64,000 nt of DNA from Pyrinomonadaceae bacterium (lineage in GTDB: Bacteria; Acidobacteriota; Blastocatellia; Pyrinomonadales; Pyrinomonadaceae): assembly GCA_041751035.1 (NCBI GenBank), contig JBGSYH010000005.1, positions 4,237-68,236 of the forward strand, read 5' to 3'. Numbering within the stretch: position 1 is the first letter of the stretch; each line of letters opens with the position of its first letter. The position numbers and the translations under genes were made by a program. The notes under the pieces are model-generated. The model was given only the letters and a program-made list of their open reading frames with translations, ran no database searches and had not been told where the DNA came from. This document shows positions 10,222-32,883 of the stretch, one piece after another.

Positions 10222-11223
10222 CTATCTTGGCATCAGGCTGCCAAAAATACTTCGTCCAGAAAGATCTTTCGTCGCAAGTTCCAAGCAGATCGCGACCTCC
10301 GATTCGCTCAAACGGTGATCTCTGGTAAGGTTCTCCTTAAATGCTGTCAAGACCCTGCCGTAACTCTTTTCCAGCCAACGCATTACGGTCGATTCATGGG
10401 TTCGCCCTCCGCCTTCTCTTGCGGCATTGCGGCGTTGAAACCATCCACGCAGCGGCGATGTATCATCTTCAACGAGGACGGCTATTTCGCGGAGTTTTAA
10501 GTTTTCGACGTGATAGTACAAAAGCAGAAGACGCTCATGGTCTTCGAGCGAGGCAAATGCGGATTCGAGCGAGGAAACAGTTGCGGCCCGAAATCGGGAC
10601 ATCTCGATACCATCCAACATATCGTCTTCGCCGCCGAGAGCCGGTTCGGCGAAATTTGCATGGGCCATGCCTTCGCCGACATTCTCGGTCATCTCGTCAA
10701 GCGATACGTCATCATGGCTGGCTCGGTGAAGATCGACGAGAGAATGCCAGATGACCGTTCGAAGCCATCCGCGAAGTGTTCCGCGTCCGCTGTAAGTGGC
10801 AAATTTCGAAACACGTTCGCCGTCAACTATCTTCTGTCCGTAAAGATCGACATACACTTGATCGACAACTTCCTGAGCATCGATCTCTGTTTTCGCCAAA
10901 TGGCGGGCGACACGTTCCAAATATGAACGATGGCTTTGGTCAAATTCCCACCATGCACGCTCGTTTCCGTTTGAGCAGGCAATGGCAAGAAAAAGTTCGT
11001 CGGCGTGTAGATTACCTATGAATTCCGTGATCTCCGCCTCCGAAATCGGTTCTGGACCGGAGCCTGAGAGAAACTTCTCGACCGTCTTAAGCACAGACCG
11101 GCCGAAACACTCTTGCTTGACGCCATAATTAGGTGAGTTCTCAACACAACGGTCGTAAATGCTCTCGATCAGGGCATTTGCTCCGTCTAAAAGGGCTTGG
11201 TCTAGCTTGGCCTCAGGCTGCAT
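10222..11223 (-). CDS. Sigma-70 family (ECF-like) RNA polymerase sigma factor with extensions
   Basis: Region-2-like segment (DAQEVVDQVYVDLY...GWLRTVIWHSLVDLHR) and region-4-like segment (LLLLYYHVENLKLREIA...ESTVMRWLEKS). The ATG at 11223 is preferred over the TTG at 11244. Confidence 0.7.
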   Translation of the reverse strand: MQPEAKLDQALLDGANALIESIYDRCVENSPNYGVKQECFGRSVLKTVEKFLSGSGPEPISEAEITEFIGNLHADELFLAIACSNGNERAWWEFDQSHRSYLERVARHLAKTEIDAQEVVDQVYVDLYGQKIVDGERVSKFATYSGRGTLRGWLRTVIWHSLVDLHRASHDDVSLDEMTENVGEGMAHANFAEPALGGEDDMLDGIEMSRFRAATVSSLESAFASLEDHERLLLLYYHVENLKLREIAVLVEDDTSPLRGWFQRRNAAREGGGRTHESTVMRWLEKSYGRVLTAFKENLTRDHRLSESEVAICLELATKDLSGRSIFGSLMPR

Positions 11224-21863: not shown

Positions 21864-22202
21864 CTACCAACGATTGCGGCCACCGCCGTAACCGCCGCCA
21901 CCGCCGCCGCCTCCGCGGTTGCCGCGACCACCACCACCGCCTCCGCCAAATCCGCGGTCTTCGCGAGGTTTAGCTTCGTTCACCTTAAGGTTGCGGCCGT
22001 TGTGCTCTTTGCCATCGAGTTCGGCAATGGCCTTTTCGCCATCTTCTTTCGATGCCATTTCAACAAAACCAAAACCGCGCGAGCGGCCGGTTTCACGGTC
22101 TTCAACGACGTTAGCAGATTCGACAGTGCCGATCCCTGCAAAAAGTTCTTCAAGTTCAAAACTGGATGTCTGAAAAGACAGATTTCCAACGTAGAGTTTC
22201 AT
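21864..22202 (-). CDS. RRM-type RNA-binding protein with Gly/Arg-rich tail
   Basis: MKLYVGNL (RNP2) and RGFGFVEM (RNP1) motifs with a C-terminal GGGGGGRGNRGGGGGG tail. The true start is the ATG at 22202, not 22607. Confidence 0.9.
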   Translation of the reverse strand: MKLYVGNLSFQTSSFELEELFAGIGTVESANVVEDRETGRSRGFGFVEMASKEDGEKAIAELDGKEHNGRNLKVNEAKPREDRGFGGGGGGGRGNRGGGGGGGGYGGGRNRW

Positions 22203-22578
22203 TTTTAATTTTATGCGAATTTGTTGCCCGCAACTGGCAAGATCAAAAAGAAGCAACGAATTCGAATAGAATTTTGGGGGAAACGGTCTGCCCGCCAAGA
22301 CTCGGATTCGTAAAGCCCGAAAGCACTTCCAAACCAAATAACCAACCTGCCCTCGAACTTCCAAAACGCCGTCGAATCTAAAGCCTACCGTTCGTGGCGC
22401 ACCACCGTTGATGCACAAGAGAAGGACTAACATTGATACTGTCGCATTTAACCAAAGCCGAATGCAAGCCCTTTTTTCAAAATATTGCACTGCCCGCGAC
22501 CTATGTTTTACCTGTGCCGAATTCCCGTCAACATTCACGTTTGGATTTCGAAAGATCAGGTGTATCATTTCGACAACG

Positions 22579-23118
22579 ATGAACGAAGAATTTGTTACCC
22601 GGCTCAAGCGGGCATTTGACTACGCAACGATGGCGGAGATCGCACGGCGCCTTGATCTGCCGCACGCCACGATACGAAATTACTTCAACGGCCGGCTGCC
22701 GGCGCCCGAGGTTTTGATCAAGATAGCCGATGAAACTAATGTGTCGCTCAATTGGCTGCTCACGGGCCGCGGCGACATGTTCCTTTCCGGTGCCAAGATC
22801 GATATCGGGCGGCTGATCGATGAGCGGATCGAAGCCTTGATCGAACAAAAGATGTCGGGCCGTGTCGCCGAAGAGGTGCAAAACCTCGGGGCGATCGATG
22901 CACCGCCGCCTTTCGATGTCGAAGCCGCCGTCCGGCAGTTCGGTGATCCGGAACGCGTTATGAGCGAATGGTTCAAGTATGACGGCCGCGAATATCCGAC
23001 CGATTTTGGCATAGTTTTCTTCCAGGGCTGGGAAACATATACACATGCCGACCGCGTCGAGGCCGTCCGCGATGCGAAGAAAGTTCTCGACCGAACACTC
23101 CGCAATAAAACTAAGTAG
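22579..23118 (+). CDS. XRE/CI-like helix-turn-helix protein with unknown C-terminal domain
   Basis: HTH segment MAEIARRLDLPHATIRNYFNGRLPAPEVLIKIADETNVSLNWLLTG. ATG at 22579. Confidence 0.7.
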   Translation: MNEEFVTRLKRAFDYATMAEIARRLDLPHATIRNYFNGRLPAPEVLIKIADETNVSLNWLLTGRGDMFLSGAKIDIGRLIDERIEALIEQKMSGRVAEEVQNLGAIDAPPPFDVEAAVRQFGDPERVMSEWFKYDGREYPTDFGIVFFQGWETYTHADRVEAVRDAKKVLDRTLRNKTK

Positions 23119-23184
23119 TTCAAGGTTCAAGGTTCCAGGTTCAAAGTTCTCGTGTTTCGTTTCTCTGAGCAGGCTACGCGTTTC

Positions 23185-23256
23185 TGTGAAACACTTGAAA
23201 CAGCTGAAACACGTGAAACACCTGAAACACGTGAAACACCTGAAACAGCTGAAACG
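23185..23256. repeat. Tandem repeat, 8 x 9 nt (NNTGAAACA)
   Basis: Counted directly: tgtgaaaca cttgaaaca gctgaaaca cgtgaaaca cctgaaaca cgtgaaaca cctgaaaca gctgaaacg. Confidence 0.95.
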
Positions 23257-23262
23257 TGTTTT

Positions 23263-23409
23263 AGTCCCAAGTCCCAAGTCCCAAGTCCCAAGTCCAAAGT
23301 CCAAAGTCGAAAGTCGAAAGTTCAAAGTCCAAAGTCCAAAGTTCAAAGTCCAAAGTCCAAAGTCCAAAGTCCAAAGTCCAAAGTCCAAAGTCCAAAGTCC
23401 AAAGTCCCG
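23263..23409. repeat. Heptanucleotide microsatellite, 21 x 7 nt (AGTCCCA/AGTCCAA/AGTCGAA/AGTTCAA)
   Basis: Counted directly as 147 nt of uninterrupted 7-nt periodicity. It produces repetitive pseudo-ORFs (SPKSKVQ...) in several frames. Confidence 0.95.
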
Positions 23410-23482
23410 AGCCCAAAAACCACCTTCCGGTTTTATCGCATCTGTGATACACTCTTGCATCTGTTAAATCAACTCTCATGTT

Positions 23483-23932
23483 ATGCGTTTTTTCCTCGAA
23501 AAGATCGAAGCACTTAAATCGGGCTGGAACCGGCGGCCATTGGCCGAAACTGATTTTCATCGTCTCTGCCGGCGGCATAAGATCACGGTCCAGGAAATGC
23601 CGCTCAAGGTCAGCGGCTTTTATTATTCGATGATGGGCCGCCACTTTATCGCGATCGACAGCCGATTGCCGCCCGCGAAAAAGCTGTTTGTGATGTTTCA
23701 CGAATTCGCTCATTTCCTGCTGCATGCACCCGACCGCGGCGTTACCGCAAATTTCCACGGCATTGGCCGCAAGACCCGTAAGGAATGCGAAGCCGACCTT
23801 TTTGCCGCCGTCGCTTTGATCCCAAGAACGTGGCTCGAAACCCGCACGCCTCACGACATCACCACCGAAGAAGGCATCGACCCCGAAACCGTCGCCGAAC
23901 GCTTTCAAATTTTCAAAGACCGCGGGATCTAA
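23483..23932 (+). CDS. ImmA/IrrE-family (DUF955) zinc metallopeptidase
   Basis: HEXXH motif in MFHEFAHFLLH plus a downstream E(CEADLFA), at the size typical of ImmA/IrrE domains. Confidence 0.8.
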   Translation: MRFFLEKIEALKSGWNRRPLAETDFHRLCRRHKITVQEMPLKVSGFYYSMMGRHFIAIDSRLPPAKKLFVMFHEFAHFLLHAPDRGVTANFHGIGRKTRKECEADLFAAVALIPRTWLETRTPHDITTEEGIDPETVAERFQIFKDRGI

Positions 23933-23993
23933 GTTCAGAGTTCAAGCTTCAGCTTGCTTCTTCGTTCAGAGTCCAAGCTTTAGCTTGTTCTTT
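23933..23993 (+). repeat. Two direct REP-like units (GTTCAGAGTNCAAGCTTNAGCTTG)
   Basis: 23933-23962 and 23964-23993 each hold a 6-bp-stem hairpin caagct-NN-agcttg. They overlap the last codons of the RAYT ORF. Confidence 0.85.
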
Positions 23994-24674
23994 CGGAAAC
24001 ACATCCCATCCTTTCCCATAATCTAACACCGGAAATTCTTTCCAAATCCGAAGAACTTCGTCTCGGCCAAGTTCTTCAAGAAATTGGTGAGCACTCGAAT
24101 AAGGCCAATCCTGCCATTTTTCAACCAGACCATGATGAACTGCATTGTTGTGAATATAATTAACGCTCGCCCAATAGTGGCGGTTTGACTTCATGTCTCG
24201 GTCAAAGAAATTGAACCAAACCTTTCTGCCGGGTGTGTTGTCCTCAAGATTCCATAAGCGTGCGGTTCGACCATGCAGTATGCCGATCAGTTTTCGCAGC
24301 AGTGCCATTTCGGCAGTCGAGGCCAACAAGTGGTAATGATTCGGCAGGATAGTCCAAGAATGCAGCTTCGAATCAGCCTCCTGACAGGTTTTTAAAATTG
24401 CGACCTCAAACTCAGTTATTCGATCGATAGTTTTTCCGATTATCGAATGATGCAGATAACAGGCGGCTGTAATAATGAAGGTATTGGTGCCTTCAAAGTC
24501 GCGGTGCGGCGGGGAATGCCAAGGCATCCGCCGTATCTTTCGGCCCTCTAGAACTTGCTCCCGCTGTTTCTCGTTTAACTTTCGCCAAAGGTACATTGCG
24601 ATTTGAATTTTATGTTCTAAATTTGCCCGGTTGGCTCTAAATTCAATGTGCGAATTATTGGACATCAGAAACAT
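23949..24674 (-). CDS. REP-associated tyrosine transposase (IS200/Y1_Tnp-like, RAYT)
   Basis: HUH-type motif ILPNHYHLL and a C-terminal tyrosine motif VNYIHNNAVHHGLV, at ~240 aa as in RAYTs. Confidence 0.7.
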   Translation of the reverse strand: MFLMSNNSHIEFRANRANLEHKIQIAMYLWRKLNEKQREQVLEGRKIRRMPWHSPPHRDFEGTNTFIITAACYLHHSIIGKTIDRITEFEVAILKTCQEADSKLHSWTILPNHYHLLASTAEMALLRKLIGILHGRTARLWNLEDNTPGRKVWFNFFDRDMKSNRHYWASVNYIHNNAVHHGLVEKWQDWPYSSAHQFLEELGRDEVLRIWKEFPVLDYGKGWDVFPKEQAKAWTLNEEAS

Positions 24675-24696
24675 TTTTGCAATAAGTTAACAGTGA

Positions 24697-24780
24697 GTTC
24701 AGAGTACACGCTTCAGCGTGCGGTGCTGGCGAAAAGGCTTGATGGTCGGCGCCGGACAAGCTAAAGCTTGAACTCTGAAC
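24697..24780. repeat. Inverted pair of REP-like units (BIME-like)
   Basis: 24697-24721 gttcagagtacacgcttcagcgtgc is in plus orientation with a compensated stem cacgct/agcgtg. 24755-24780 gacaagctaaagcttgaactctgaac is the inverted copy. Confidence 0.85.
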
Positions 24781-24855
24781 TTTCGTAGTGACATCGCACG
24801 CGTTTTGGTCTATATTTCTTCCGTTCAACCCCAATAACTTTTTTCGGAGGCCGAA

Positions 24856-25569
24856 ATGGCAACCAACGATACTTTTGACCGTCGATCTTACGACCGCAGA
24901 TTGTTTCTGTGGGCGGCGATCGGTTTCGCCTTGCTCGCTTTTGCCGGTTTTGCCCAGACTTATTACCTCAAGCCCTTCATCCAGACGGTGCCGCTGCGGA
25001 CGATCACTCATTTTCACGGGCTGACGATGTCGGCATGGATCATACTTTTCGCCACGCAGGTCTTTTTGATCCGCTCGAAGAATGTCGCGCTTCACATGCG
25101 GCTCGGTTGGGCCGGTGTTGCTCTTGCGGTGGTGGTCATCGTCGTCGGGTTGGTCACCAGCATTGAGGCCGCGCGTAACGGAGTCGCACCCGGCGGGATC
25201 GATCCGCTTGCGTTCATGATCGTGCCGCTCGGTGACATGTTGGTCTTTGCGATCCTGTTCGGAGCGGCGATCTATTACAGAAAAGTTCCGGCCAACCATA
25301 AGCGGCTGCTGCTCGTAACGGCTTTCAACTTTCTGCCGCCGGCGGTCGGCCGCATTCCGTATGCACCGCTTGAGCTCGGGCCGCTGTGGTTCTACGGCTT
25401 TCCCGATCTGCTGATGCTTATCATTCTCGGCATTGATACGTGGAAGAACGGACGGTTGAACCGGGCTTTTGCTTTCGCGGCTGTATTTTTGATCGTCTCT
25501 CATGTCTTTCGAATTATGTTTATGTCGAGCGTCCCGTGGATGAACTTTGCGACGTGGCTTACAACCTGA
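24856..25569 (+). CDS. Integral membrane protein, unknown function
   Basis: 237 aa with about 6 predicted TM helices. The long antisense ORF 24655-25503 is rejected. Confidence 0.7.
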   Translation: MATNDTFDRRSYDRRLFLWAAIGFALLAFAGFAQTYYLKPFIQTVPLRTITHFHGLTMSAWIILFATQVFLIRSKNVALHMRLGWAGVALAVVVIVVGLVTSIEAARNGVAPGGIDPLAFMIVPLGDMLVFAILFGAAIYYRKVPANHKRLLLVTAFNFLPPAVGRIPYAPLELGPLWFYGFPDLLMLIILGIDTWKNGRLNRAFAFAAVFLIVSHVFRIMFMSSVPWMNFATWLTT

Positions 25570-25605
25570 TCCGAGTTTGATATCTTGCCACCGATCGCCT
25601 CGATC

Positions 25606-26955
25606 TTACTCAGAGAGCTTTCTCCTTAACAATTCAGTTTCGAGGCGTTCGCGTTCCGTGGTGCTTGACGGGTCTTCCCATTCGGTCTCAAGCTGAAGAT
25701 CGCCTAGGCCTTCGATCCGCAATGCGAACTGCATTATCTCAGCCCAGGTTTGACCGAAGGCGAACTGGCGGTCGCGCACCTTGGCGATAAAGCGGGATTC
25801 GGCTCGCAGGATCGCTTCGCCCGAAGGGAACCCACGCGTGTGCGGCAGCAGATAATACATCGGCGTACCGGTGACGGATGCCATGTCGATGCGAAAGCTG
25901 TCTTTTACTTTAAGGAACTGGTCGAGGTTCGCGGTGCCGAAATCGCCAAATTTCGCATCGGGATTTTGCGTTACCCAAAGATGATCGACGCCTGCCTTGA
26001 ACGGAGCGACGGCGTTACCATCATTGTCATATTCGATCTCTATGCCGGCGGCCCAACGTTGCCGATACGCCGAATATTCCATCGCGACCAGCATATCCAG
26101 AACAGATTTGTTCAGGCCATCTTGCACGGGTATCGCCGATTCCAGTTCCGAACGACCGAATGCACCGAGGTCTGCGTTGTTCGCGAAATGGAACACAGGA
26201 ACAGTGTTGTAGGGATTGGCGATGACGTGCATGTCCGGAATACCCTCGTGCTCCGCACTCGTGGGGACAGGAGTGTCCCCGCTCCCGTAGGGAATGAAGT
26301 CGCGGTGGTCGGGGAGCGTTGCTTCGCCGGGTTTGGCGGTGATGTACCGTTCGATGCGGTCGGCGTAAAAAAGATTGAGCCGCGTGTGCTTATCGGCGGT
26401 CCGCCAAAATTTAGCGGCGCGGATGATCCGGCCGGGATGGTCTTCATCATATGTCACCGAAACGTTCGCCGCACGGTTCGGATAGATCGCCGCCTTGCCT
26501 TCATCATCCGGCCAGACGATCGCATATGCATCGCCGCTAACGAGAGCTTCGCGATGGACCTCGCCAGAACGAAGCTGCATTCGGTTGCGATGCCAGATGT
26601 GTTCGAGAGGAGCGCGGACACTCTTGTCCGCATCGCCGGTTCCTCCGGCAAAATATTCGCGGCCCATCAAAGACTCCAACTCTTTCGCACTTGTTCGCGT
26701 CGAAGCGACGCTCATGGGGACATGAGTGTCCCCGCTCCTACGGAAGCCGGTGATGCGGAGTTTGTCGCGGACTGCGTCGCAGACCGCAGGGCAAAGGTTC
26801 ATCGCGAATTCGCGAAAGAGCGAGCCGAACGCGTTCTCAAATTTTTCGGTCGCGTAAGCCAGATCATGTTGGCCGCGATAGTAGCGTTCGGGCTTTGTGT
26901 ATCGCGCACCCGCGGTGCGGAAATTGTGAATTGCTTCTTCGATGTGTGTTTTCAT
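25606..26955 (-). CDS. Phage portal protein (SPP1 Gp6-like)
   Basis: About 450 aa. The C-terminal segment ...MYYLLPHTRGFPSGEAILRAESRFIAKVRDRQFAFGQTWAEIM resembles the conserved portal core. ATG at 26955 (MKTHIEEAI). Confidence 0.75.
   Translation of the reverse strand: MKTHIEEAIHNFRTAGARYTKPERYYRGQHDLAYATEKFENAFGSLFREFAMNLCPAVCDAVRDKLRITGFRRSGDTHVPMSVASTRTSAKELESLMGREYFAGGTGDADKSVRAPLEHIWHRNRMQLRSGEVHREALVSGDAYAIVWPDDEGKAAIYPNRAANVSVTYDEDHPGRIIRAAKFWRTADKHTRLNLFYADRIERYITAKPGEATLPDHRDFIPYGSGDTPVPTSAEHEGIPDMHVIANPYNTVPVFHFANNADLGAFGRSELESAIPVQDGLNKSVLDMLVAMEYSAYRQRWAAGIEIEYDNDGNAVAPFKAGVDHLWVTQNPDAKFGDFGTANLDQFLKVKDSFRIDMASVTGTPMYYLLPHTRGFPSGEAILRAESRFIAKVRDRQFAFGQTWAEIMQFALRIEGLGDLQLETEWEDPSSTTERERLETELLRRKLSE
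26263..26285. repeat. 23-nt palindromic repeat copy 1 inside portal CDS
   Basis: ggggacaggagtgtccccgctcc, with a 7-bp stem ggggaca/tgtcccc. Confidence 0.9.
26716..26738. repeat. 23-nt palindromic repeat copy 2 inside portal CDS
   Basis: ggggacatgagtgtccccgctcc matches copy 1 at 22/23 positions and lies 453 nt (151 codons) away. Confidence 0.9.
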
Positions 26956-26998
26956 AATGATGGTTGATCCGCCATGTGGCGGACGGTCTAAGCTTTGA

Positions 26999-27388
26999 TC
27001 AGCGAAGAATTGCGCCCAACGCAACACCCGCCGCAACGTCGCCGATCCGGCGCCAAACGGACGTTCGTTTTGTCTTTAGCCCGGCGATCAGCTTGTCCTG
27101 AGCGGTGATCACCGCGTCTTTGGCAGCGATCGTTTCGTTCTTTGCGGCGATGGCTTGTCTTAGCGCGTCGGTCTCGCTTTTACGTGTTTCGTTCAGTTCT
27201 TTGAGGACCGCGTTCGCCTGTTGTTCGGTATCGAGCCGCGTTTTTAATGCGGCGTTCTCGCGTTCGAGCGCTTCGATAAGGCGATCGGCGAGACGAAGTT
27301 CTTCGGTGCTATTTTGCCCGCTCACGGTGACGCTGAAGATCGCGGCGAGCAGCAGCGGAATCAGCAGAAAGTTTTTCAAGTTGTTCAT
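26999..27388 (-). CDS. Secreted/membrane coiled-coil protein (lysis-cassette position)
   Basis: The ATG at 27388 (MNNLKNFLLIPLLLAAIF...) gives a signal-like N-terminus, a coiled coil and a C-terminal hydrophobic segment. It overlaps the upstream gene by 80 nt in another frame. Confidence 0.5.
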   Translation of the reverse strand: MNNLKNFLLIPLLLAAIFSVTVSGQNSTEELRLADRLIEALERENAALKTRLDTEQQANAVLKELNETRKSETDALRQAIAAKNETIAAKDAVITAQDKLIAGLKTKRTSVWRRIGDVAAGVALGAILR

Positions 27389-27635
27389 CTTGATTGCGTG
27401 CGGCCGTCTCGATCTCTGTAAGCCTGGCTTCGAGATACGCGGCCTTTTCCTTGTAAATATTGGTCTGTTTTTCAAGCTCGTCGGAGCGTTGCTGTTGCTG
27501 GTCGGCGAGGTGTTTGGTCCTCTCAACGGCTTGTTCGAGCCTCGCGATTTGGATATACGAGCGGATCGAGTTTCCGATGATCAGGACCGCGATAAGCATC
27601 GCGGCGGCGAAGTAGAGTTTGTGTTTAAGGGTCAT
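27309..27635 (-). CDS. N-terminally anchored coiled-coil protein (i-spanin-like topology)
   Basis: 108 aa, with one N-terminal TM helix (LYFAAAMLIAVLIIG) followed by a charged coiled coil. Confidence 0.5.
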   Translation of the reverse strand: MTLKHKLYFAAAMLIAVLIIGNSIRSYIQIARLEQAVERTKHLADQQQQRSDELEKQTNIYKEKAAYLEARLTEIETAARNQDEQLEKLSADSAAARRDLQRHRERAK

Positions 27636-27650
27636 GGTTGTTCGTTAATT

Positions 27651-27686
27651 TGAAATTTCAGATCTGAGATCTGAGATTTCAGAATC
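27651..27686. repeat. Heptamer-periodic palindromic element
   Basis: In tgaaatttcagatctgagatctgagatttcagaatc, gatctga occurs twice in tandem and tcagatctga is a perfect palindrome. Confidence 0.7.
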
Positions 27687-27702
27687 GAAACGGGCACACT
27701 CC

Positions 27703-27906
27703 CTACCGGTCGTGTTTCTGCCGGTCCTGATGTTTTTTGTTCAGGTGAATTTGCAGCAGCACGTCGATCGTCTTTCCGATACTAAAAAATAGTATCGGTA
27801 GGACGATCGCCGAGATGATGGTGATGAGCGTTCGCGTTTCGATCGCCGCGAAGACGGAAGAAACGGTTGAGAAATATGCGAGTAAGAAGTTTTTAATGTC
27901 GTTCAT
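27703..27906 (-). CDS. Holin-like small membrane protein
   Basis: 67 aa with two TM helices and a highly charged C-terminus (KKHQDRQKHDR), adjacent to the endolysin-like gene. Confidence 0.5.
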   Translation of the reverse strand: MNDIKNFLLAYFSTVSSVFAAIETRTLITIISAIVLPILFFSIGKTIDVLLQIHLNKKHQDRQKHDR

Positions 27907-27935
27907 AGTAGTTTGTGTTTTCAGCTGTTTTTGAA

Positions 27936-28013
27936 CGCGGATCAGGCGGATTCTCGCGGATGCATTTATGGTTTTCGTATCCGCTGCGATCTGCGCTATC
28001 CGCTTTATCCGCG
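27936..28013. repeat. Word hairpin (GCGGAT words / ATCCGC words)
   Basis: The left arm cgcggatcaggcggattctcgcggatgc faces the right arm gtatccgctgcgatctgcgctatccgctttatccgcg. It spans the stop codon at 28005-28007. Confidence 0.75.
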
Positions 28014-29108
28014 TTCCATTGCTTCCCTTATTCGCCCGAGCGCGATCTGGCGGTAGAGGTACATCAGCGTAAGTGCTGCGGCGACTCCGGCCGCGAAGAA
28101 CCAGACCTCACGCGGAAGCCCGGCGAGAAAGCCGAACACCGCCCACGTGGTTTGAAATACTGTGCCGACGATCGCTGTCCAAAGAGATTTCGCACGGTCG
28201 CTCCGTGTGATGACTGTCGTTGCGATGCGCTCGATCTGGTCGTAGGTTTCGGCGGCTTGGTTCACGCTCGTTTCAACTCGGTCGAGCCCGGAGTTTTGAG
28301 TACAAGCTTCAGCTTGCTTCTTTTGCTGAACGGCCTGACGGTTATCTACAGACAAGCTAAAGCTTGAACTCTCAACCGGTGAACTCTGAACGCTTGGAGT
28401 CTGAATTCCGAGAAGCTCGTCGGTCAGCCGGACGCCGTGGACGACCGTCGGCAATTCGAGCTGCCATTTTCCGAGCATTATCTGGTTAAGAAAAAAGCGA
28501 GTTCGATAGCGCGTCGCGCGAAGCCGCAGGATCGAACCGAGCCATGCATCGCGGGTCCGGACATATTCGGCGACCCACCTTTTTTCAAATTCGATCGATG
28601 GCCCGTTGCCGCCTTTGATGCTTACGCGGTCGCGGATCCTTTCGTATGAGCCGTGCGTCAGCGAATCGTAAATGACCGCGAGCGAAAGCGGCAGCACAAA
28701 GCCTGAACCTTCGCAGGCGGCGATCGCCGGTGCGAGATAATTTGTGAATGCAATGCGGTCCTGTGCCTCGCGCATCTCGCGTGTCATCCCGGCGGCACGA
28801 AGTGCGTTGCGAAAGACCATGTCGCCGGAAAGTTCTTTGATCGCATCGGGCGAAGTATCCAGCAGTTTGCGATAGCGTTCGATCATCACCTTGCGGCCGA
28901 CAATTCCGCCAAGTCGAAGATATTCATCCACCACCGCACGCAGCGAACCCGAACGATGCGTGAACTGACTGGCTCCGTACGAAATGCCGGCTCCGTCGTT
29001 CAAAACAGCAACCGCCGAATAATTGCCGAGCGGCTTGCCGGTCTCAAATATCCGCACGATCGCCGAGGCCTTTCTCTTATCAATTGTTGTAAAGGTCATT
29101 TGTTTCAT
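28005..29108 (-). CDS. Endolysin-like glycoside hydrolase (GH46/lysozyme-like N-domain) with C-terminal TM segment
   Basis: The N-terminal ETG...NDGAGISYGASQF pattern resembles the Glu/Asp core of chitosanase-like lysozyme folds. The C-terminal ~60 aa are hydrophobic. The start is ATG at 29108 or 29099, and a REP pair is embedded at 28293-28406. Confidence 0.55.
   Translation of the reverse strand: MKQMTFTTIDKRKASAIVRIFETGKPLGNYSAVAVLNDGAGISYGASQFTHRSGSLRAVVDEYLRLGGIVGRKVMIERYRKLLDTSPDAIKELSGDMVFRNALRAAGMTREMREAQDRIAFTNYLAPAIAACEGSGFVLPLSLAVIYDSLTHGSYERIRDRVSIKGGNGPSIEFEKRWVAEYVRTRDAWLGSILRLRATRYRTRFFLNQIMLGKWQLELPTVVHGVRLTDELLGIQTPSVQSSPVESSSFSLSVDNRQAVQQKKQAEACTQNSGLDRVETSVNQAAETYDQIERIATTVITRSDRAKSLWTAIVGTVFQTTWAVFGFLAGLPREVWFFAAGVAAALTLMYLYRQIALGRIREAMERG
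28293..28406. repeat. Inverted pair of REP-like units embedded in frame in a CDS
   Basis: 28293-28320 gttttgagtacaagcttcagcttgcttc is in plus orientation and 28351-28376 gacaagctaaagcttgaactctcaac is inverted, with an extra half-unit to 28406. The architecture matches 24697-24780. Confidence 0.85.
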
Positions 29109-29250
29109 CCTTGAAAATGCTTCTTGCAAACGATATGTTTGTTTGATAAAATAGAATGGTCGGACGATAAAGGACGCCAAGGGTTTTATATTATCCCCGC
29201 CGCTTACATACCGCCCGGCCACTTGCAGAATAGGTGTTCCAGATGCAGAA

Positions 29251-29344
29251 GGAAATAGCAATTGTTAAGGATTATGGCAATTGTTGAAGATGGAATAAAT
29301 GGAATGATTGGAATGAAAGTGGGCACTTGGCGCACTTGGAAAGG
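29251..29344. repeat. Left mosaic inverted-repeat block
   Basis: Contains the words ggaaatagcaattgtt, gcaattgttgaag, ggaataaatggaa and gcacttggcgca, which recur reverse-complemented at 29679-29742. Confidence 0.8.
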
Positions 29345-29353
29345 AGCAAAGAA

Positions 29354-29584
29354 ATGAAACGTACATTCGATATTCAGGTTCGGCCGAAAATGAGGCTTAG
29401 TGAGATAGAACGCATTTTGAAAGACAACCGGGCGATCGTGCCCGTGCCCTCGCGGCAGACGCTGATCCGCATGTGCGAATCCGGTGTTCTTGAAACACCA
29501 ACGGGCAAACCGGGCCGGAGCGGGTGGTTGGTTTATGAAGATTCGTTTCTAAAGTGGCTCAAGTCGCTGGATGAAAACGGGTGA
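29354..29584 (+). CDS. Small excisionase-family (HTH_17-like) DNA-binding protein
   Basis: AAGGAG SD then ATG at 29354. The segment SRQTLIRMCESGVLET...GWLVYEDSFLKWLKSL fits the winged-helix excisionase-family pattern. Confidence 0.55.
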   Translation: MKRTFDIQVRPKMRLSEIERILKDNRAIVPVPSRQTLIRMCESGVLETPTGKPGRSGWLVYEDSFLKWLKSLDENG

Positions 29585-29599
29585 ATTGAATGCGGGTTT

Positions 29600-29644
29600 T
29601 AGCCACGAATGCACGAATTTTTCTTATTAGTGCATTCGTGGCTA
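29600..29644 (+). repeat. 15-bp perfect hairpin (GCCACGAATGCAC family)
   Basis: tagccacgaatgcac - 15-nt loop - gtgcattcgtggcta, directly after the stop at 29584. No U-tract follows. Confidence 0.85.
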
Positions 29645-29678
29645 TATCTGAGAAGTATGGCAAGCGACTTCCGGCGGA

Positions 29679-29742
29679 CCTTTCCATTTATTCCAATTGC
29701 GCCAAGTGCGGTCAACTTCAACAATTGCTATACCGCATTTCC
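29679..29742. repeat. Right mosaic inverted-repeat block
   Basis: Its reverse complement reads ggaaatgcggtatagcaattgttgaagttgaccgcacttggcgcaattggaataaatggaaagg, which shares exact 12-16-nt blocks with 29251-29344. Confidence 0.8.
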
Positions 29743-29769
29743 CCAAACCTCGTTTATTCTCGCCGCTGT

Positions 29770-30219
29770 ATGAACGAAGAAATACAAAAAATCGAGAGCG
29801 AAGATGCGGCGGCCATGCCGGATGCGTCGCTCGAAAGCAGTGCCGAAGTTGAACAGCTTCGGCGTGAGAATGAGGAACTGAAACAGGCCGCACGTATGAA
29901 GGCGGCTCACGATAATTTGACGCAAAAACTTGCTGATGCGGGCGCACGCTCGCCTGAGCTATTGTTCGACACCGTCCGCGGAAAAATTCAATTTGACGAA
30001 GGCGGCGAACCGCTGAACACGGCGGCGTTGGTCGCGGACCTAAGATCAAAATTTCCGGAACAGTTCGGCGCTACCCACGCGTCTGCATCGATCGATGCGG
30101 CCGCGGGAGCCGGGGCTCGTCCAAACTTTCTAACCGCGGAAGCACTCGCAAAGATGACCCCGCAAGAGATCGCACGGCTCGATTGGAACGAAGTGCGAAG
30201 CGTATTAACTAACAACTAA
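29770..30219 (+). CDS. Phage scaffolding protein (GP20-like)
   Basis: Coiled-coil N-terminus, with the DAGARSPELLFD...IQFDEGGEP...LVADLRSKFPEQFG pattern typical of GP20-type scaffold proteins. ATG at 29770. Confidence 0.65.
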   Translation: MNEEIQKIESEDAAAMPDASLESSAEVEQLRRENEELKQAARMKAAHDNLTQKLADAGARSPELLFDTVRGKIQFDEGGEPLNTAALVADLRSKFPEQFGATHASASIDAAAGAGARPNFLTAEALAKMTPQEIARLDWNEVRSVLTNN

Positions 30220-30222
30220 AAA

Positions 30223-30337
30223 CGAATAGTGAATAACGAATAGTGAATAACGAATAGCGAACAACGAATAGTGAATAGCGAATAATGAGCCATCTGTTAC
30301 TGATCACTTTTCACTTTTCACTGATCACTCTTCACTA
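30223..30337. repeat. Tandem 14-mer array plus partly complementary arm
   Basis: acgaatagtgaata occurs about 4.5 times (30223-30287), followed by ctgatcacttttcacttttcactgatcactcttcact. AGTGAA words on the left face TTCACT words on the right. Confidence 0.85.
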
Positions 30338-30344
30338 AAAGATT

Positions 30345-31196
30345 ATGGCATTGACATTTATACCTACGGTTTGGGCAGCGCGGCTGCTCACGGCATTGGA
30401 AAGATCGCTCGTTTACGGACAAGGCGATGTGGCAAATCGTGATTACGAGGGCGAGATACGCTCGGCGGGAAACACGGTAAAGATCGCGTCGGTCGGCGAT
30501 GTTACGATCGGCGATTACACACAGAACACGAACATCGACGATCCGGAGGAACTGACCGATGCGGCTCAGACACTTGAGATCGACCAACAGAAGTTCTTTC
30601 ATTTTTACGTGGACGGCATCGACCGTGCGCAGCAGAACGTGAACATCCTTGATGAAGCGATGCGGCGTTCGGCATGGAAGCTCCGCGACGAGGCGGACAA
30701 GTTCCTCGCCGGGCTGATGGCAGCGGCTGTGCCGGGCGGGAACACTTTGGGGTCGGACATCACGCCGATCATTCCGACAAAGGACGATGCTTACGAATAT
30801 CTCGTCGATCTGGGCGTAAAGCTGGACGAAGCGAACACACCGATCGAGGGGCGATTTGTAATCGTCCCGGCATGGTTCCACGGATTGCTGCTCAAGGATG
30901 AGCGGTTCATAAACGCGGGGACGGCGCGTTCGGATGCGGCTCTTCGCAATGGTGAGGTCGGCGAAGCGGCGGGTTTTTCGATCCTGAAATCGAACAATGT
31001 GCCAAACGAAGAAGGCGAGCAATACAAGATAATCGCCGGACATTCGATCGCGACGGCGTATGTTGAACAGGTCGTTGATGTACAGACCTACAAGCCCGAA
31101 AAGCGTTTTGGCGATGCGGTAAAAGGGCTGCACGTTTACGGGGCCAAAGTCGTGCGTGCGGCAAATCTGGCGATGATGATCGCCGACAAAGAGTAA
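30345..31196 (+). CDS. Phage major capsid protein (HK97-fold, P22-coat/SU10-like family)
   Basis: The N-terminus MALTFIPTVWAARLLTALERSLVYG...NRDYEGEIRSAGNTVKI matches the conserved start I recall for this capsid family. It lies directly after the scaffold gene. Confidence 0.75.
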   Translation: MALTFIPTVWAARLLTALERSLVYGQGDVANRDYEGEIRSAGNTVKIASVGDVTIGDYTQNTNIDDPEELTDAAQTLEIDQQKFFHFYVDGIDRAQQNVNILDEAMRRSAWKLRDEADKFLAGLMAAAVPGGNTLGSDITPIIPTKDDAYEYLVDLGVKLDEANTPIEGRFVIVPAWFHGLLLKDERFINAGTARSDAALRNGEVGEAAGFSILKSNNVPNEEGEQYKIIAGHSIATAYVEQVVDVQTYKPEKRFGDAVKGLHVYGAKVVRAANLAMMIADKE

Positions 31197-31202
31197 CTCT
31201 AA

Positions 31203-31268
31203 ACGGTGAACGGTGAGTGGTGAATAAAAATTCCTACACTCACCATTCACCGCTAAGCATTCACCATT
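31203..31268 (+). terminator. Strong hairpin after capsid gene (GGTGA words), possible attenuator/terminator
   Basis: 16-bp stem cggtgaacggtgagtg/cactcaccattcaccg with one mismatch and a 17-nt loop. An alternative pairing ggtgaat/attcacc is possible. No clear U-tract. Confidence 0.55.
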
Positions 31269-31274
31269 ACAAAT

Positions 31275-31595
31275 ATGACTCCACTAGACAAACTAAAAGC
31301 ACTCACCGCTTGGGAGACCGAGCCGGTATTGACCGAAACCGGGGTCGAAGACATTTTGGGAAACGCATCGGTCGCCGATGCGGAAGGAAATGCGCCATCG
31401 AACGACGATTGGACGCCGACCTACGACATTAACAAAGCCGCCGCCGAAGCCTGGCTGATAAAGGCCGCACGCGCGTCCGCACTGACCGAGATCGACCCGC
31501 CGGAAAGCGGCATCGTTACATCGCAGGTCTTTGAAAACTGCATGAACATGTCGCGGGAATTTAAGGCAAAGGCGACCTCCAGTGTCAAGACCTAG
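31275..31595 (+). CDS. Small phage head-associated protein (possible head-tail adaptor/decoration)
   Basis: 106-aa ORF immediately downstream of the capsid gene. The assignment is positional only. Confidence 0.45.
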   Translation: MTPLDKLKALTAWETEPVLTETGVEDILGNASVADAEGNAPSNDDWTPTYDINKAAAEAWLIKAARASALTEIDPPESGIVTSQVFENCMNMSREFKAKATSSVKT

Positions 31596-31643
31596 AAAAC
31601 AACCTACACCGACGACAAAGAGTATCGCTAACTTCGTGATCCT

Positions 31644-32234
31644 CTATTGCTCAATCGGCTCATTCGATTCTGATCTGAAAAGAAAAACTGGTCTGCGAGT
31701 TTCATCGGGCATTCGCTCGATCTCCAACTCTAAAACCACATACTCTGCTTTCTGTTTTTCACTCGGGGCCCATCCGATCGCGCGGGAACATTCCCTCAGC
31801 GCCTCTTTCTCATCACCCTGAAGATGATAGATTTTTGCAAGCCCTCCGTGAGCAATTGCTGAGGCATCGTCTTGCAACGTGCCTTCAAGTAGAGCGTTAC
31901 GATAATTTTCGTGAGCGGAACCAAGCACGTTCTTTGAGTGGTCAATTATCGCTTGAGTCAGATAAAAACAAGCTCGCTTTTTTGACGACTGTTTTTTGGG
32001 ATTCCGGATCGACTGGAGCATTCTCTCGGCAGCATCCAACTGACCGGCTTTTGCATAGCCAAAAGCCCTTAAAGACCTGCCGTAAATAAAGTAGCTGACG
32101 GTCAATGAGAATGCCGAGAAGTAAAACCACAATCCCAAAATGGTTGGAAATGTTCCACCTATCCCGAACAGACAGTAAGTTGCTACGATTAGGAACAACG
32201 TCGCGTACAAAAGTTGTTGATAACGAAAAATCAC
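31644..32234 (-). CDS. Membrane-anchored TPR-like protein
   Basis: Two N-terminal TM helices followed by TPR-like helical repeats. It is convergent with the capsid operon. Confidence 0.55.
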   Translation of the reverse strand: MIFRYQQLLYATLFLIVATYCLFGIGGTFPTILGLWFYFSAFSLTVSYFIYGRSLRAFGYAKAGQLDAAERMLQSIRNPKKQSSKKRACFYLTQAIIDHSKNVLGSAHENYRNALLEGTLQDDASAIAHGGLAKIYHLQGDEKEALRECSRAIGWAPSEKQKAEYVVLELEIERMPDETRRPVFLFRSESNEPIEQ

Positions 32235-32255
32235 GATCGCCAGACATTATATAGC

Positions 32256-32288
32256 AAACAAAAAGGCCGACCCATTGCAGATCGGCCG
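32256..32288 (-). terminator. Rho-independent terminator after DJ-1/PfpI gene
   Basis: Minus-strand ggccga-loop-tcggcc followed by tttttgtttg. Confidence 0.6.
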
Positions 32289-32307
32289 AGTTCGTTAATT
32301 GCATATA

Positions 32308-32883
32308 TTAATTCGCGGCGGCCTTTTGGCCTTCGTGTTTGCCTTCGGCGAATTCCTCGATCATCTTTTTGTTAAAAGCAGGAATGTCTTCGGGTTTACG
32401 GCTTGAGACCAGGCCTTGGTCGACCATCACCTCGGCATCGACCCATTCGGCCCCGGCGTTTATCAGGTCCTGTTTCACCGATGGCCAAGAGGTGATCTTG
32501 CGGCCTTTCACAACGCCTGCATCGATCAGCGGCCACGGCCCGTGGCAGATGACCGCGACCGGCTTACCTTCGTCGAAAAATCCTTTAATAAAGCTAACAG
32601 CCTTTTCGTCCATCCGAAGCTGGTCGGGATTCGCGACTCCGCCCGGAAGCAATAAAGCGTCGAAATCGGCCACGTTCGCTTCTTCCAGCGGAACATCAAC
32701 GGTAAATTTATCGCCCTTGTCAAAATGGTGCCAGCCTTCCACCTCGCCGGTCATCGGCGATACGATCTTGGTTTTCGCACCCGCTTCGTGCAGTGCCGTT
32801 TGCGGATCAGTCAGCTCTATCTGCTCAAAACCATCCGCGACCAATATCGCAACTCGTCTGTTTGTAAGATCTATTTTATTCAT
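32308..32883 (-). CDS. DJ-1/PfpI family protein (type 1 glutamine amidotransferase-like)
   Basis: VAILVADGFE start with a nucleophile elbow in AVICHGPW, at 191 aa. Confidence 0.9.
   Translation of the reverse strand: MNKIDLTNRRVAILVADGFEQIELTDPQTALHEAGAKTKIVSPMTGEVEGWHHFDKGDKFTVDVPLEEANVADFDALLLPGGVANPDQLRMDEKAVSFIKGFFDEGKPVAVICHGPWPLIDAGVVKGRKITSWPSVKQDLINAGAEWVDAEVMVDQGLVSSRKPEDIPAFNKKMIEEFAEGKHEGQKAAAN

Follow-up and report, generated by a model that had tools for sequence, protein, structure and literature searches.

A phage-derived head and lysis module without a tail, kept at one chromosomal neighborhood in the Pyrinomonadaceae: evidence for domestication and selection

What a cell might gain from a tailless, and possibly empty, phage capsid is the question raised by a group of genes found in a 64-kb stretch of DNA from a soil acidobacterium of the Pyrinomonadaceae (contig JBGSYH010000005.1, positions 4,237 to 68,236, here called the window, in which the module described below lies at 25.6-31.6 kb). 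Reading of the sequence at 25606-31595 shows nine intact open reading frames (ORFs) in two divergent operons, which encode a portal protein and a putative lysis cassette on one strand, and a small putative regulator, a scaffold, a capsid protein and a small head protein on the other. The first-pass annotation of this DNA was right about the intactness, the divergent layout, the coordinates and the strands of these genes, and only their number, given as ten, had to be corrected. In our analysis, the cassette is most likely inherited vertically and fixed at one chromosomal neighborhood in the Pyrinomonadaceae. That the element has been domesticated and is under selection is a claim that we make with considerable confidence, while the fuller reading of the locus as a domesticated, selected system in which a head-only particle is coupled to lysis, which we draw from sequence data, is the one we favor with moderate confidence.

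The major capsid protein (MCP) of the module (30345-31196, plus strand; 283 aa) is of the P22-coat/HK97-fold type, based on matches to phrog_267 (1e-66), PF25209 (3e-11) and the gp6 capsid structure 8e16 in PDB (1e-34). The portal gene occupies 25606-26955 on the minus strand (the longest ORF runs to 27036, and the ATG at 26955 is the likely start); its product matches PF05133 (7.6e-21) and phrog_104 (1.5e-78), and resembles the solved dodecameric portals in PDB at about 1e-13. The product of 28005-29108 (minus strand, longest ORF to 29261) is, as judged from PF01374 (6.8e-11, or 42.6 bits compared to a cut-off of 27), a GH46/lysozyme-like muramidase and putative endolysin, in which the catalytic-region motif FET...VLNDGAG..QFTHRSG is invariant in 54 homologues and a C-terminal transmembrane (TM) hairpin is also conserved. 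For these three genes, the identities proposed at first pass are borne out. The same can be said of two overlapping coiled-coil membrane genes on the minus strand. The first of them, cc2 (27309-27635), encodes a Rz-like i-spanin candidate with an N-terminal TM segment followed by a coiled coil (phrog_739, 1.9e-8), and its 3' end is overlapped in another frame by cc1 (26999-27388, ORF to 27526), which takes the position of a second spanin component. The cc1 product is a coiled coil with a signal-like or TM N-terminus and a C-terminal TM segment, and shows a weak Rz-like PHROG match (0.03-0.05); it lacks the lipobox cysteine that would be expected of a canonical o-spanin lipoprotein. Between cc2 and the endolysin gene lies a short gene (27703-27906, minus strand) called holin-like from its shape and position: the predicted 67-aa protein does have the two hydrophobic TM helices and the charged C-terminus expected from the first pass, and it returned no family match in Pfam, PHROG and NCBIfam searches.

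Among the plus-strand genes, the putative small helix-turn-helix (HTH) regulator (29354-29584, ORF open from 29327) and the candidate scaffold (29770-30219, longest ORF open from 29590; about 150 aa in relatives) both match their families below cut-off (HTH_17, 4.4e-4, and PF06810, 1.2e-3, respectively), and the identities first given to them are upheld to that extent. The last 26 residues of the scaffold also match the annotated scaffold of phage D6E (9e-4). The last gene (31275-31595, plus strand), called small from here on, encodes a putative four-helix head/neck protein of 106 aa that belongs to no family and has 82 homologues, all without a name. A search with its AlphaFold2 model (pLDDT 84.5) gave no match in PDB (best E 1.3), and the matches in BFVD, to uncharacterised phage proteins, are weak; a homologue, 40-50% identical, is the third gene after the MCP gene among the head-completion genes of a tailed phage discussed below. 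From its position alone, it is possible that this protein is a portal adaptor or cap. When the module proteins were run against NCBIfam and PADLOC nothing was found, the sole PADLOC match being an ImmA-like peptidase, encoded to the left of the module, that resembles capP.

Pfam and PHROG profile scans of the 64-kb window found no prohead protease, terminase, tail or integrase gene, and a tblastn search for the large terminase subunit (TerL) in the window was empty at E<=10. The first-pass view of a phage-derived, incomplete module, devoid of terminase, tail, integrase and replication genes, thus stands for the whole window. Among 29 ORFs scanned outside 11-48 kb, one weak match to phrog_31 'central tail fiber J' (2.6e-6) was seen, which is probably a widely shared repeat domain within a large cellular protein. 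Boundaries of the tRNA/att type were considered and rejected, as the window contains no tRNA and the module is not enclosed by direct repeats. The missing prohead protease, which was listed at first among the absent genes, is normal for a capsid of this scaffold-dependent type; phage D6E likewise has no prohead protease. The portal of the module is unrelated to that of D6E, and the head module is therefore mosaic relative to this phage.

To place the locus in its family, we searched contigs of one genome per species in GTDB with the MCP and obtained 397 confirmed relatives, the best 80 of which were kept as loci (numbered L001 onward); all 80 come from Pyrinomonadaceae/Blastocatellia-type Acidobacteriota, with MCP identities of 71-90%. 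In a large protein collection, 926 protein clusters fall in the MCP clade at E<=1e-110. Every locus long enough holds the identical gene set, which comprises endolysin, holin-like, two spanin-like, portal, scaffold, MCP and one small head protein, and clustering of all ORFs revealed no further phage-like cluster that recurs. The scaffold gene lies directly 5' of the MCP gene in 80/80 loci; small is present in 80 loci and absent in L163; cc1 and cc2 are each kept in 50 loci; the HTH gene is kept in 55, in every one divergent from the GH46 endolysin gene; and in nearly every locus tblastn placed a homologue of the holin-like gene in the interval from GH46 to the spanin-like genes. In the 53 loci that span the whole region, full-length genes were counted in 53 for GH46 and small, 52 for scaffold and MCP, and 45 for portal, with 6 more portals running off contig ends.

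The surroundings of the module are conserved as well. The flanking genes are cellular (DUF58/VWA, radical SAM, DJ-1, PAS-GGDEF-EAL and others), and trmFO lies next to the module in 44 loci, usually together with a TauE permease gene, a vWA protein gene and xerC; the last of these, found 5-7 kb away in relatives, is a member of this conserved trmFO-TauE-vWA-xerC host block. Locus L163, whose module proteins are 55-80% identical to those of the window, has the same neighbors as the window (DUF58, 79% identical; RRM, 84%; cI, 78%; ImmA, 85%; GGDEF-EAL, 72%), followed by trmFO. This locus carries TerL and no small gene, and its GGDEF-EAL gene starts 73 nt after the MCP gene (10852-10925). The mean protein p-distance of the MCP (0.23) is comparable to those of trmFO (0.17), xerC (0.20) and TauE (0.26). 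Congruence between MCP and host gene trees gave weak correlations of 0.19-0.69, and host genes compared to each other agree equally weakly (0.23-0.31), so that this test is of low power.

These observations bear on the possibility that the module is a capsid-forming satellite of the phage-inducible chromosomal island (PICI) type, which would build its own heads and rely on a helper phage for terminase, tails and mobilization. Such capsid-forming PICIs (cf-PICIs) resemble the module in being small and in having their own capsid, portal and connector-type proteins and no tail; here too one finds a capsid, a portal, a scaffold and one connector-like protein, a small HTH protein divergent from the structural operon, and related tailed phages that could act as helpers. 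Cf-PICIs are, however, mobile elements with integrase, AlpA, replication genes and TerS/TerL that steal the tails of their helper, while the mobility genes are all missing from the module, which sits at a fixed site and has a lysis cassette of its own. In the window and the 80 loci, we found no integrase, no att-like repeat, no replication or primase gene, and no small terminase (TerS) or pac function. The cellular copies are also monophyletic and hold a fixed position beside housekeeping genes of comparable divergence, and a cassette that kills its host without excision or replication would not spread. We consider a satellite to be highly improbable.

Two side observations relate to where the module is found. 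A 2,516-bp stretch of the 'Leptolyngbya sp. 7M' chromosome (CP070897.1, 8865-11380; L164) is 100% identical to the acidobacterial L163 and contains HTH, scaffold, MCP and a truncated EAL gene among cyanobacterial genes (PsaE, fibrillin), beside a rve transposase. The stretch could stem from chimeric assembly of a non-axenic culture, or else it was transferred very recently; in both cases the identity suggests that some laboratory culture contains a carrier of the module, apparently the one from which SRR24079484 / GCA_018128485.1 comes. In addition, two 'viral' contigs of IMG/VR (L082 and L083) are fragments of the cellular module, with trmFO located right after small in L083, so that capsid-based virus calls in Acidobacteriota metagenomes can be false positives.

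Selection on the module was estimated as the ratio of nonsynonymous to synonymous substitution rates (dN/dS; Nei-Gojobori method, NG86, median over pairs with dS<1.5). The ratio was 0.13 for MCP, 0.21 for portal, 0.28 for TerL where present, 0.29 for small, 0.30 for HTH, 0.35 for GH46 and 0.39 for scaffold, and also 0.39 for cc1 and 0.49 for cc2, two values affected by the mutual constraint of these overlapping genes; the host genes trmFO, xerC, TauE and vWA gave 0.09, 0.105, 0.17 and 0.20, respectively. Between the window and its nearest relatives L001 and L002 (dS 0.4-0.9), the values were 0.07-0.08 for MCP, 0.15 for portal, 0.26-0.29 for GH46 and 0.31-0.36 for scaffold. All module genes are under purifying selection, with dN/dS of 0.07-0.5.

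A functionless prophage remnant in slow decay, with open reading frames and low dN/dS left over from a phage phase or from hitch-hiking, had been one of the two options offered by the first-pass annotation. Some of our data do point in that direction, as some lineages lack TerL, the spanin-like genes, GH46 or small, the window copy has received insertions, within it or beside it, of a pair of repetitive extragenic palindromic (REP) sequences and a REP-associated tyrosine transposase (RAYT) gene, and the constraint on the MCP of the window is slightly relaxed. The cellular copies, however, share their chromosomal site and form one clade, which places the counted substitutions after immobilization, and at a synonymous divergence near 1, ORFs of 280-450 codons free of constraint would not be open in 45-53 of 53 species. 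Furthermore, the MCP is as constrained as trmFO and xerC, rearrangements always preserve the genes, and a non-coding element specific to the module is conserved along with them. With family-wide synteny, intact ORFs and the dN/dS range given above all contradicting decay, we regard a remnant as very improbable. The other option, domestication, is where the evidence leads: orthologous position, intact genes and dN/dS well below 1 are what is found here, and the module is neither specific to one strain nor evolving at a dN/dS near 1, the two findings named beforehand as counting against it.

The ancestry of the module can be read from its phage relatives. MCP identity to the window is 67-74% in six IMG/VR contigs, while in ordinary phages, D6E among them, it does not exceed 60%, and the MCPs of circulating tailed relatives are up to 83% identical to cellular MCPs. 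One of the six is the cellular fragment L083, which contains trmFO. Four contigs (L084-L087) are genuine tailed-phage genomes, with a tape-measure-sized ORF in L084, and show which genes the module lacks: it has only head and lysis genes, where an intact prophage would also have those for integration, replication, packaging and the tail. In L087, a cI-like gene is followed by a gene for the same unusual type of GH46 endolysin (46% identical), both coiled-coil genes, a possible TerS, TerL (60%), portal (50%), a gp7-like head-morphogenesis gene, scaffold, MCP (67%), two further genes, the small homologue (40%), and Neck1-type and minor-tail genes. Homologues of these genes were counted in 60 cellular loci for GH46, 46-50 for the coiled-coil genes, 61 for portal, 80 for scaffold, 81 for MCP, 80 for small and 22 for TerL, and in none for the gp7-like gene, the two post-MCP genes, and every gene of the neck and tail; no neck or tail gene was seen within 10 kb in the 80 loci or in the 64-kb window, and small is the sole post-capsid gene of the phage ancestor to have been kept. 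In the MCP tree, cellular proteins are monophyletic, and the tailed phages L084-L087 branch immediately outside. As judged from these sequences, the module goes back to a phage of the siphovirus type. Its history is most simply explained by one immobilization event in an ancestor of the family, after which all descendants inherited the same set of internal deletions.

Gene order tells a consistent story. In 44 loci the order is colinear, with HTH divergent and GH46-holin-cc2-cc1-(TerL)-portal-scaffold-MCP-small following, and the block from portal to HTH is inverted in 24 loci, the window included; in three loci with further rearrangements, portal or TerL has moved to a position after small. 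The genes are preserved through all of these rearrangements (arrangements A, B, C and D), and after the inversion HTH is co-oriented with scaffold, MCP and small, and both halves still face one bidirectional control region. The earlier proposal that one inversion plus deletions explains the layout of the window fits both the 44 colinear loci and the tailed phage L087, which has the same order plus the deleted genes. The order that it predicted was right in its colinearity and wrong in the placement of HTH, which belongs to the inverted block and in the ancestral arrangement is transcribed away from the lysis-TerL-portal-scaffold-MCP-small operon.

That same proposal had a terminase missing from its slot, and in 22 loci, the two nearest relatives among them, TerL lies exactly there. 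Where the slot can be inspected (55 loci), TerL is found between cc1 and portal in 21, including L001, L002 and L163, as a Terminase_6N+6C protein with invariant ATPase and nuclease motifs. In the window, the slot consists of the cc1 stop codon, 41 nt and the portal ATG, with no trace of TerL; the deletion is clean, and the lineage of the window has lost TerL recently. Among the best 120 of 3,908 TerL homologues, none lies on the 392-kb contig of the window or on the 4.5-Mb contig CAVTYF010000001.1 of a TerL-less carrier; JASGKA010000001.1 and CAVXOI010000007.1 come from further carriers with complete or nearly complete genomes. On the module tree, the distribution of TerL requires at least 7 changes, or 10 losses if it was never regained. 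The MCP and portal are equally constrained in TerL-less clades and TerL-bearing lineages, with dN/dS of 0.075-0.12 and 0.14-0.21, respectively, inside three clades uniformly without TerL. Capsid and portal have thus stayed under constraint long after TerL loss, and the selected function probably needs no DNA packaging by the module itself; and because they outlive TerL with no tail nearby, gene transfer is probably not the conserved function. As for the cause of the repeated losses, a terminase sensor (Upx) from a Pyrinomonadaceae bacterium was among those tested in PMC13601566, and it might be that the terminase-sensing immunity (Upx/Avs) reported from this family makes a resident TerL costly.

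The alternative most directly affected by these results is a split gene transfer agent (GTA) or split prophage, in which TerL, neck and tail genes would reside at other, co-expressed loci, and complete tailed particles carrying DNA would be made. There is a precedent, as RcGTA is known to be encoded at several loci (PMC5026251); TerL is kept under purifying selection in 21 of 55 loci with its motifs invariant; and the small protein, a likely portal adaptor, has been retained. RcGTA-type GTAs of the Rhodobacterales and other Alphaproteobacteria resemble the module in being an immobilized phage structural cluster that is inherited vertically across a family or order under purifying selection, is (or here would be) released by holin and endolysin, and has no integrase or replication genes. 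Nevertheless, GTAs have complete tails and always keep TerL, while the module has no tail or neck gene within 10 kb in the 80 loci and lacks TerL in about 60%; the GTA ancestor is also unrelated to that of the module, which had a P22-coat-type MCP built on a scaffold and no prohead protease. In the ancestral phage, neck and tail genes were contiguous with the head genes, so that their loss is a more parsimonious explanation than a relocation of the whole set, and TerL was cleanly deleted at least 7 times with capsid and portal still constrained. We find a split system unlikely. Of the features that define a GTA, chromosomal inheritance and purifying selection are seen here, and a tail (in the window and within 10 kb of the loci), as well as TerL in the window, is not; by such defining features, the GTA-like label of the first-pass annotation does not fit, and neither does the satellite-like one, for which mobility genes are missing.

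Upstream of the lysis operon we found a conserved non-coding leader (29114-29232, minus strand), detected by k-mer conservation. Its predicted fold is a hairpin of two helices (core 29157-29221), after which comes a conserved T-rich/TATCAAAC stretch that lies some 50 nt ahead of the GH46 start. In an alignment of 43 leaders, standard pairs make up 97% of the paired cells. Covariation is modest, with compensatory changes at 4 pairs; G-U and A-U alternate at two pairs, in about half of the leaders, and this favors an RNA made from the sense strand, while the variable length of the loop argues against a protein operator of fixed spacing. A covariance model (R1), run on cellular loci, the window and the IMG/VR loci, detected a single copy in each of 59 cellular loci, invariably right upstream of GH46, or upstream of the holin gene where GH46 has been lost, and one copy (105.9 bits) in the 64-kb window. 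No copy was found in the 39 IMG/VR loci, tailed relatives included. The leader belongs to no Rfam family, the sole match in 22000-32500 at E<=1 being unrelated and sub-threshold. We read it as a candidate cis-regulatory element, gained or kept to place a lethal operon under the control of the cell. The lambda late operon, with its pR'-tR' leader and Q antitermination, also has a structured leader upstream of a lysis-terminase-head operon and an adjoining small regulator gene, and a role of the leader as terminator or attenuator would be only an analogy with pR'-tR'; the likeness is one of layout. The T-tract is weak in many loci, and none of the 39 IMG/VR loci has the leader.

Since the ancestral operon begins with the lysis genes, and these carry this leader, one might argue that it is the lysis cassette that is selected, for release of extracellular DNA, vesicles or biofilm matrix, with the head genes as passengers, and domesticated lysis cassettes of defective prophages are indeed known. 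The MCP and portal, however, are the most constrained genes of the module, above the lysis genes, and scaffold and MCP are never lost, whereas GH46 has been lost in L031, L036 and L048 and cc1/cc2 are absent in L013, L023, L034, L059 and L078. Loci without GH46 or spanin-like genes still have holin, portal, scaffold, MCP and leader, from which it follows that the lysis part is less uniformly retained than the head part. A variant of this explanation, an encapsulin-like intracellular compartment, faces the difficulty that portal and scaffold are not features of encapsulins and that a lysis cassette does not suit an intracellular compartment. In either form, we judge this explanation to be quite improbable. 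A preprint (bioRxiv 10.1101/2025.06.18.659913) describes portal-less and tail-less 'twilight' HK97 entities and puts forward the procapsid as a link from viruses to compartments of the cell; these entities and encapsulins share with the module an HK97-fold shell protein outside a complete virus, but have no portal, scaffold or linkage to lysis, while in the module portal and scaffold are constrained, and a full putative lysis cassette is present. Encapsulin shells are also paired with cargo that bears a targeting peptide, and here no cargo-type gene is conserved next to the MCP gene.

The closest parallel to the head-only reading that we favor is offered by tailocins (R- and F-type pyocins), which, like the module, are half of a virion that has been domesticated, have SOS-type regulators, and are (or here would be) released by a phage lysis cassette. 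Tailocins keep the tail and drop the head, and the module is their mirror image, with the head kept and the tail dropped. A tail can kill alone; to our knowledge, no autonomous activity of a tailless head has been described.

The genes next to the module complete this picture. Its immediate flanks are, as first described, a convergent membrane-protein gene on the left (24856-25569, plus strand) and a convergent TPR gene on the right (31644-32234, minus strand). The former, which has no Pfam match and is convergent with portal, has homologues beside portal in 9 loci and is a recurrent left neighbor of inverted-type loci. Farther left is a gene for a cI-like HTH repressor (22579-23118, plus strand, ORF open from 22408; PF07022, 2e-10; HTH_3, 2.9e-9), with homologues adjoining the module in L002, L041, L071, L080, L026, L051 and L163, and a homologue 37% identical in the tailed phage L087; it probably acts as a regulator, and accompanies the module in some of the relatives. 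Its putative partner, an M78 metallopeptidase of the ImmA/IrrE type (23483-23932, plus strand; PF06114, 1e-16; PADLOC capP, 1.7e-10), is 85% identical in L163, where its gene directly abuts portal. The element probably extends to the left as far as the cI-like repressor and the ImmA/CapP-like peptidase (22579-23932). Tandem repeats fill the space between these two genes (23118-23407; GTTCAAG x4.6, a 9-mer x7.7, and AGTCCAA x20.7), and the gene adjoining the cI-like gene on its other side (21864-22250, minus strand) encodes an RRM-type RNA-binding protein with a Gly/Arg-rich tail, 84% identical in L163, a homologue of which is found near the MCP gene in the IMG/VR contig L082.

Between the regulator pair and the module lies the RAYT gene (23949-24674, minus strand; an IS200-like Y1 transposase, Y1_Tnp 1.5e-5), which makes up, together with two REP copies on each side (at 23933, 23964, 24697 and 24757), a unit spanning 23933-24780. 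It is absent at the corresponding position in L163 and is a later insertion. The colonization of the module by REP-type repeats that had been claimed comes down to a single inverted pair, the fifth and sixth copies, in the GH46 gene (28293-28376), the other four being those that flank RAYT. This pair is in frame in a variable linker and must be an old coding insertion that is tolerated, as the orthologues in L001 and L002 share the peptide that it encodes (SSFSL...QAEACT).

Repeats of other kinds are found around the plus-strand genes. A 14-nt tandem repeat (AACGAATAGTGAAT, x4.9) occupies the scaffold-MCP intergenic region (30221-30288), and heptamer runs flank the HTH gene in other loci, similar to the tandem arrays of the window, where one is also seen at 29284-29320. 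The HTH gene is further flanked by imperfect inverted repeats (29255-29341 and 29682-29732) that have in common the blocks GCAATTGTTGAAG, GCACTTGGCGCA and TGGAATAAATGGAA, and are partly made of heptamer repeats recurring in such intergenic regions of other loci; a perfect 19-bp stem-loop (29600-29644) lies 3' of the HTH stop codon. These structures could be duplicated operators, a terminator, or repeat debris. Their use as inversion sites was rejected, as they bracket the HTH gene and not the breakpoints. A scan for promoters and terminators gave counts no higher than in shuffled sequence.

Taken as a domesticated head and lysis system, the module would work as follows. The small HTH protein and the leader hairpin and, in this lineage, a damage-responsive switch formed by the cI-like repressor and the ImmA-like peptidase (CapH/CapP-like) would hold the lethal operon off. 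Upon induction, the scaffold would assemble MCP on the portal dodecamer to give tailless capsids, the small protein would dock on the portal, and the holin, the membrane-anchored GH46 enzyme and the spanin-like pair would lyse the cell and free the particles. In relatives that keep TerL, the heads could be filled with DNA; in the strain of the window, they would be empty unless a terminase arrives in trans. As to what such a system is for, our favored, if tentative, suggestion is a suicide or interference device directed at the closely related tailed phages in circulation, in which resident procapsids or coat protein would titrate or poison phage assembly and packaging, and lysis would abort the infection. 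More broadly, and with a similar degree of doubt, the module might belong to a class of domesticated phage machinery not described before, a head-side counterpart of tailocins, made of portal-bearing, tailless and often terminase-less capsids coupled to programmed lysis, the role of which would not be gene transfer but either capsid-based interference and abortive infection, or release of particles with other cargo, gated by the leader RNA.

We acknowledge that several points weigh against these interpretations. Head-only particles and lysis are predictions from the gene content, and the assignments of HTH, holin and scaffold have a weak or positional basis. For the proposed anti-phage role, the ImmA-like peptidase provides the only PADLOC match. 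Not every part of the module is indispensable, as the spanin-like genes (in about 5 lineages), GH46, or small (in L163) have been lost. The MCP shows some mild relaxation in the lineage of the window, with 15 nonsynonymous and 49 synonymous lineage-specific changes compared to 3 and 55 in two TerL-bearing sisters combined, even though constraint is still strong. Most loci come from metagenome-assembled genomes (MAGs), dS is near saturation (about 1-1.5) for most pairs, and NG86 and neighbor-joining (NJ) trees were used instead of codon or likelihood models. Finally, the search for tail and terminase genes covered the 64-kb window and 10 kb around the 80 loci, and such genes could be located beyond, as is the case for parts of RcGTA.

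No earlier description of such a module was found in the searchable literature. In two subdivision-4 isolates analyzed by Eichorst et al. (2018), neither capsid nor portal nor terminase was detected, and the only capsid domestications given in a 2022 review of recruited mobile elements are GTAs, satellites and encapsulins. In kind, the module belongs with something already known, that is, domesticated phage structural modules; that it stands for a new functional class is a real possibility. Known domestications of the tailed-phage virion have kept the whole particle (GTAs), the tail (tailocins and contractile injection systems), or the bare shell protein (encapsulins). Here, head, portal and scaffold appear to be wired to a lysis cassette and selected across a family that is widespread in soil and wastewater, with a terminase of its own being dispensable. 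With its TerL-bearing and TerL-less variants, its inverted and colinear arrangements, its circulating tailed relatives as possible challengers or helpers, and a leader specific to the module, the locus offers the material with which the use of such capsids can be approached, and may bear on the prophage origin of encapsulin-like compartments or of capsid-based antiviral factors. For those who study the Acidobacteriota, it also carries a warning, as capsid and portal matches in MAGs of this phylum, and in some 'viral' contigs of IMG/VR, need not be prophages.

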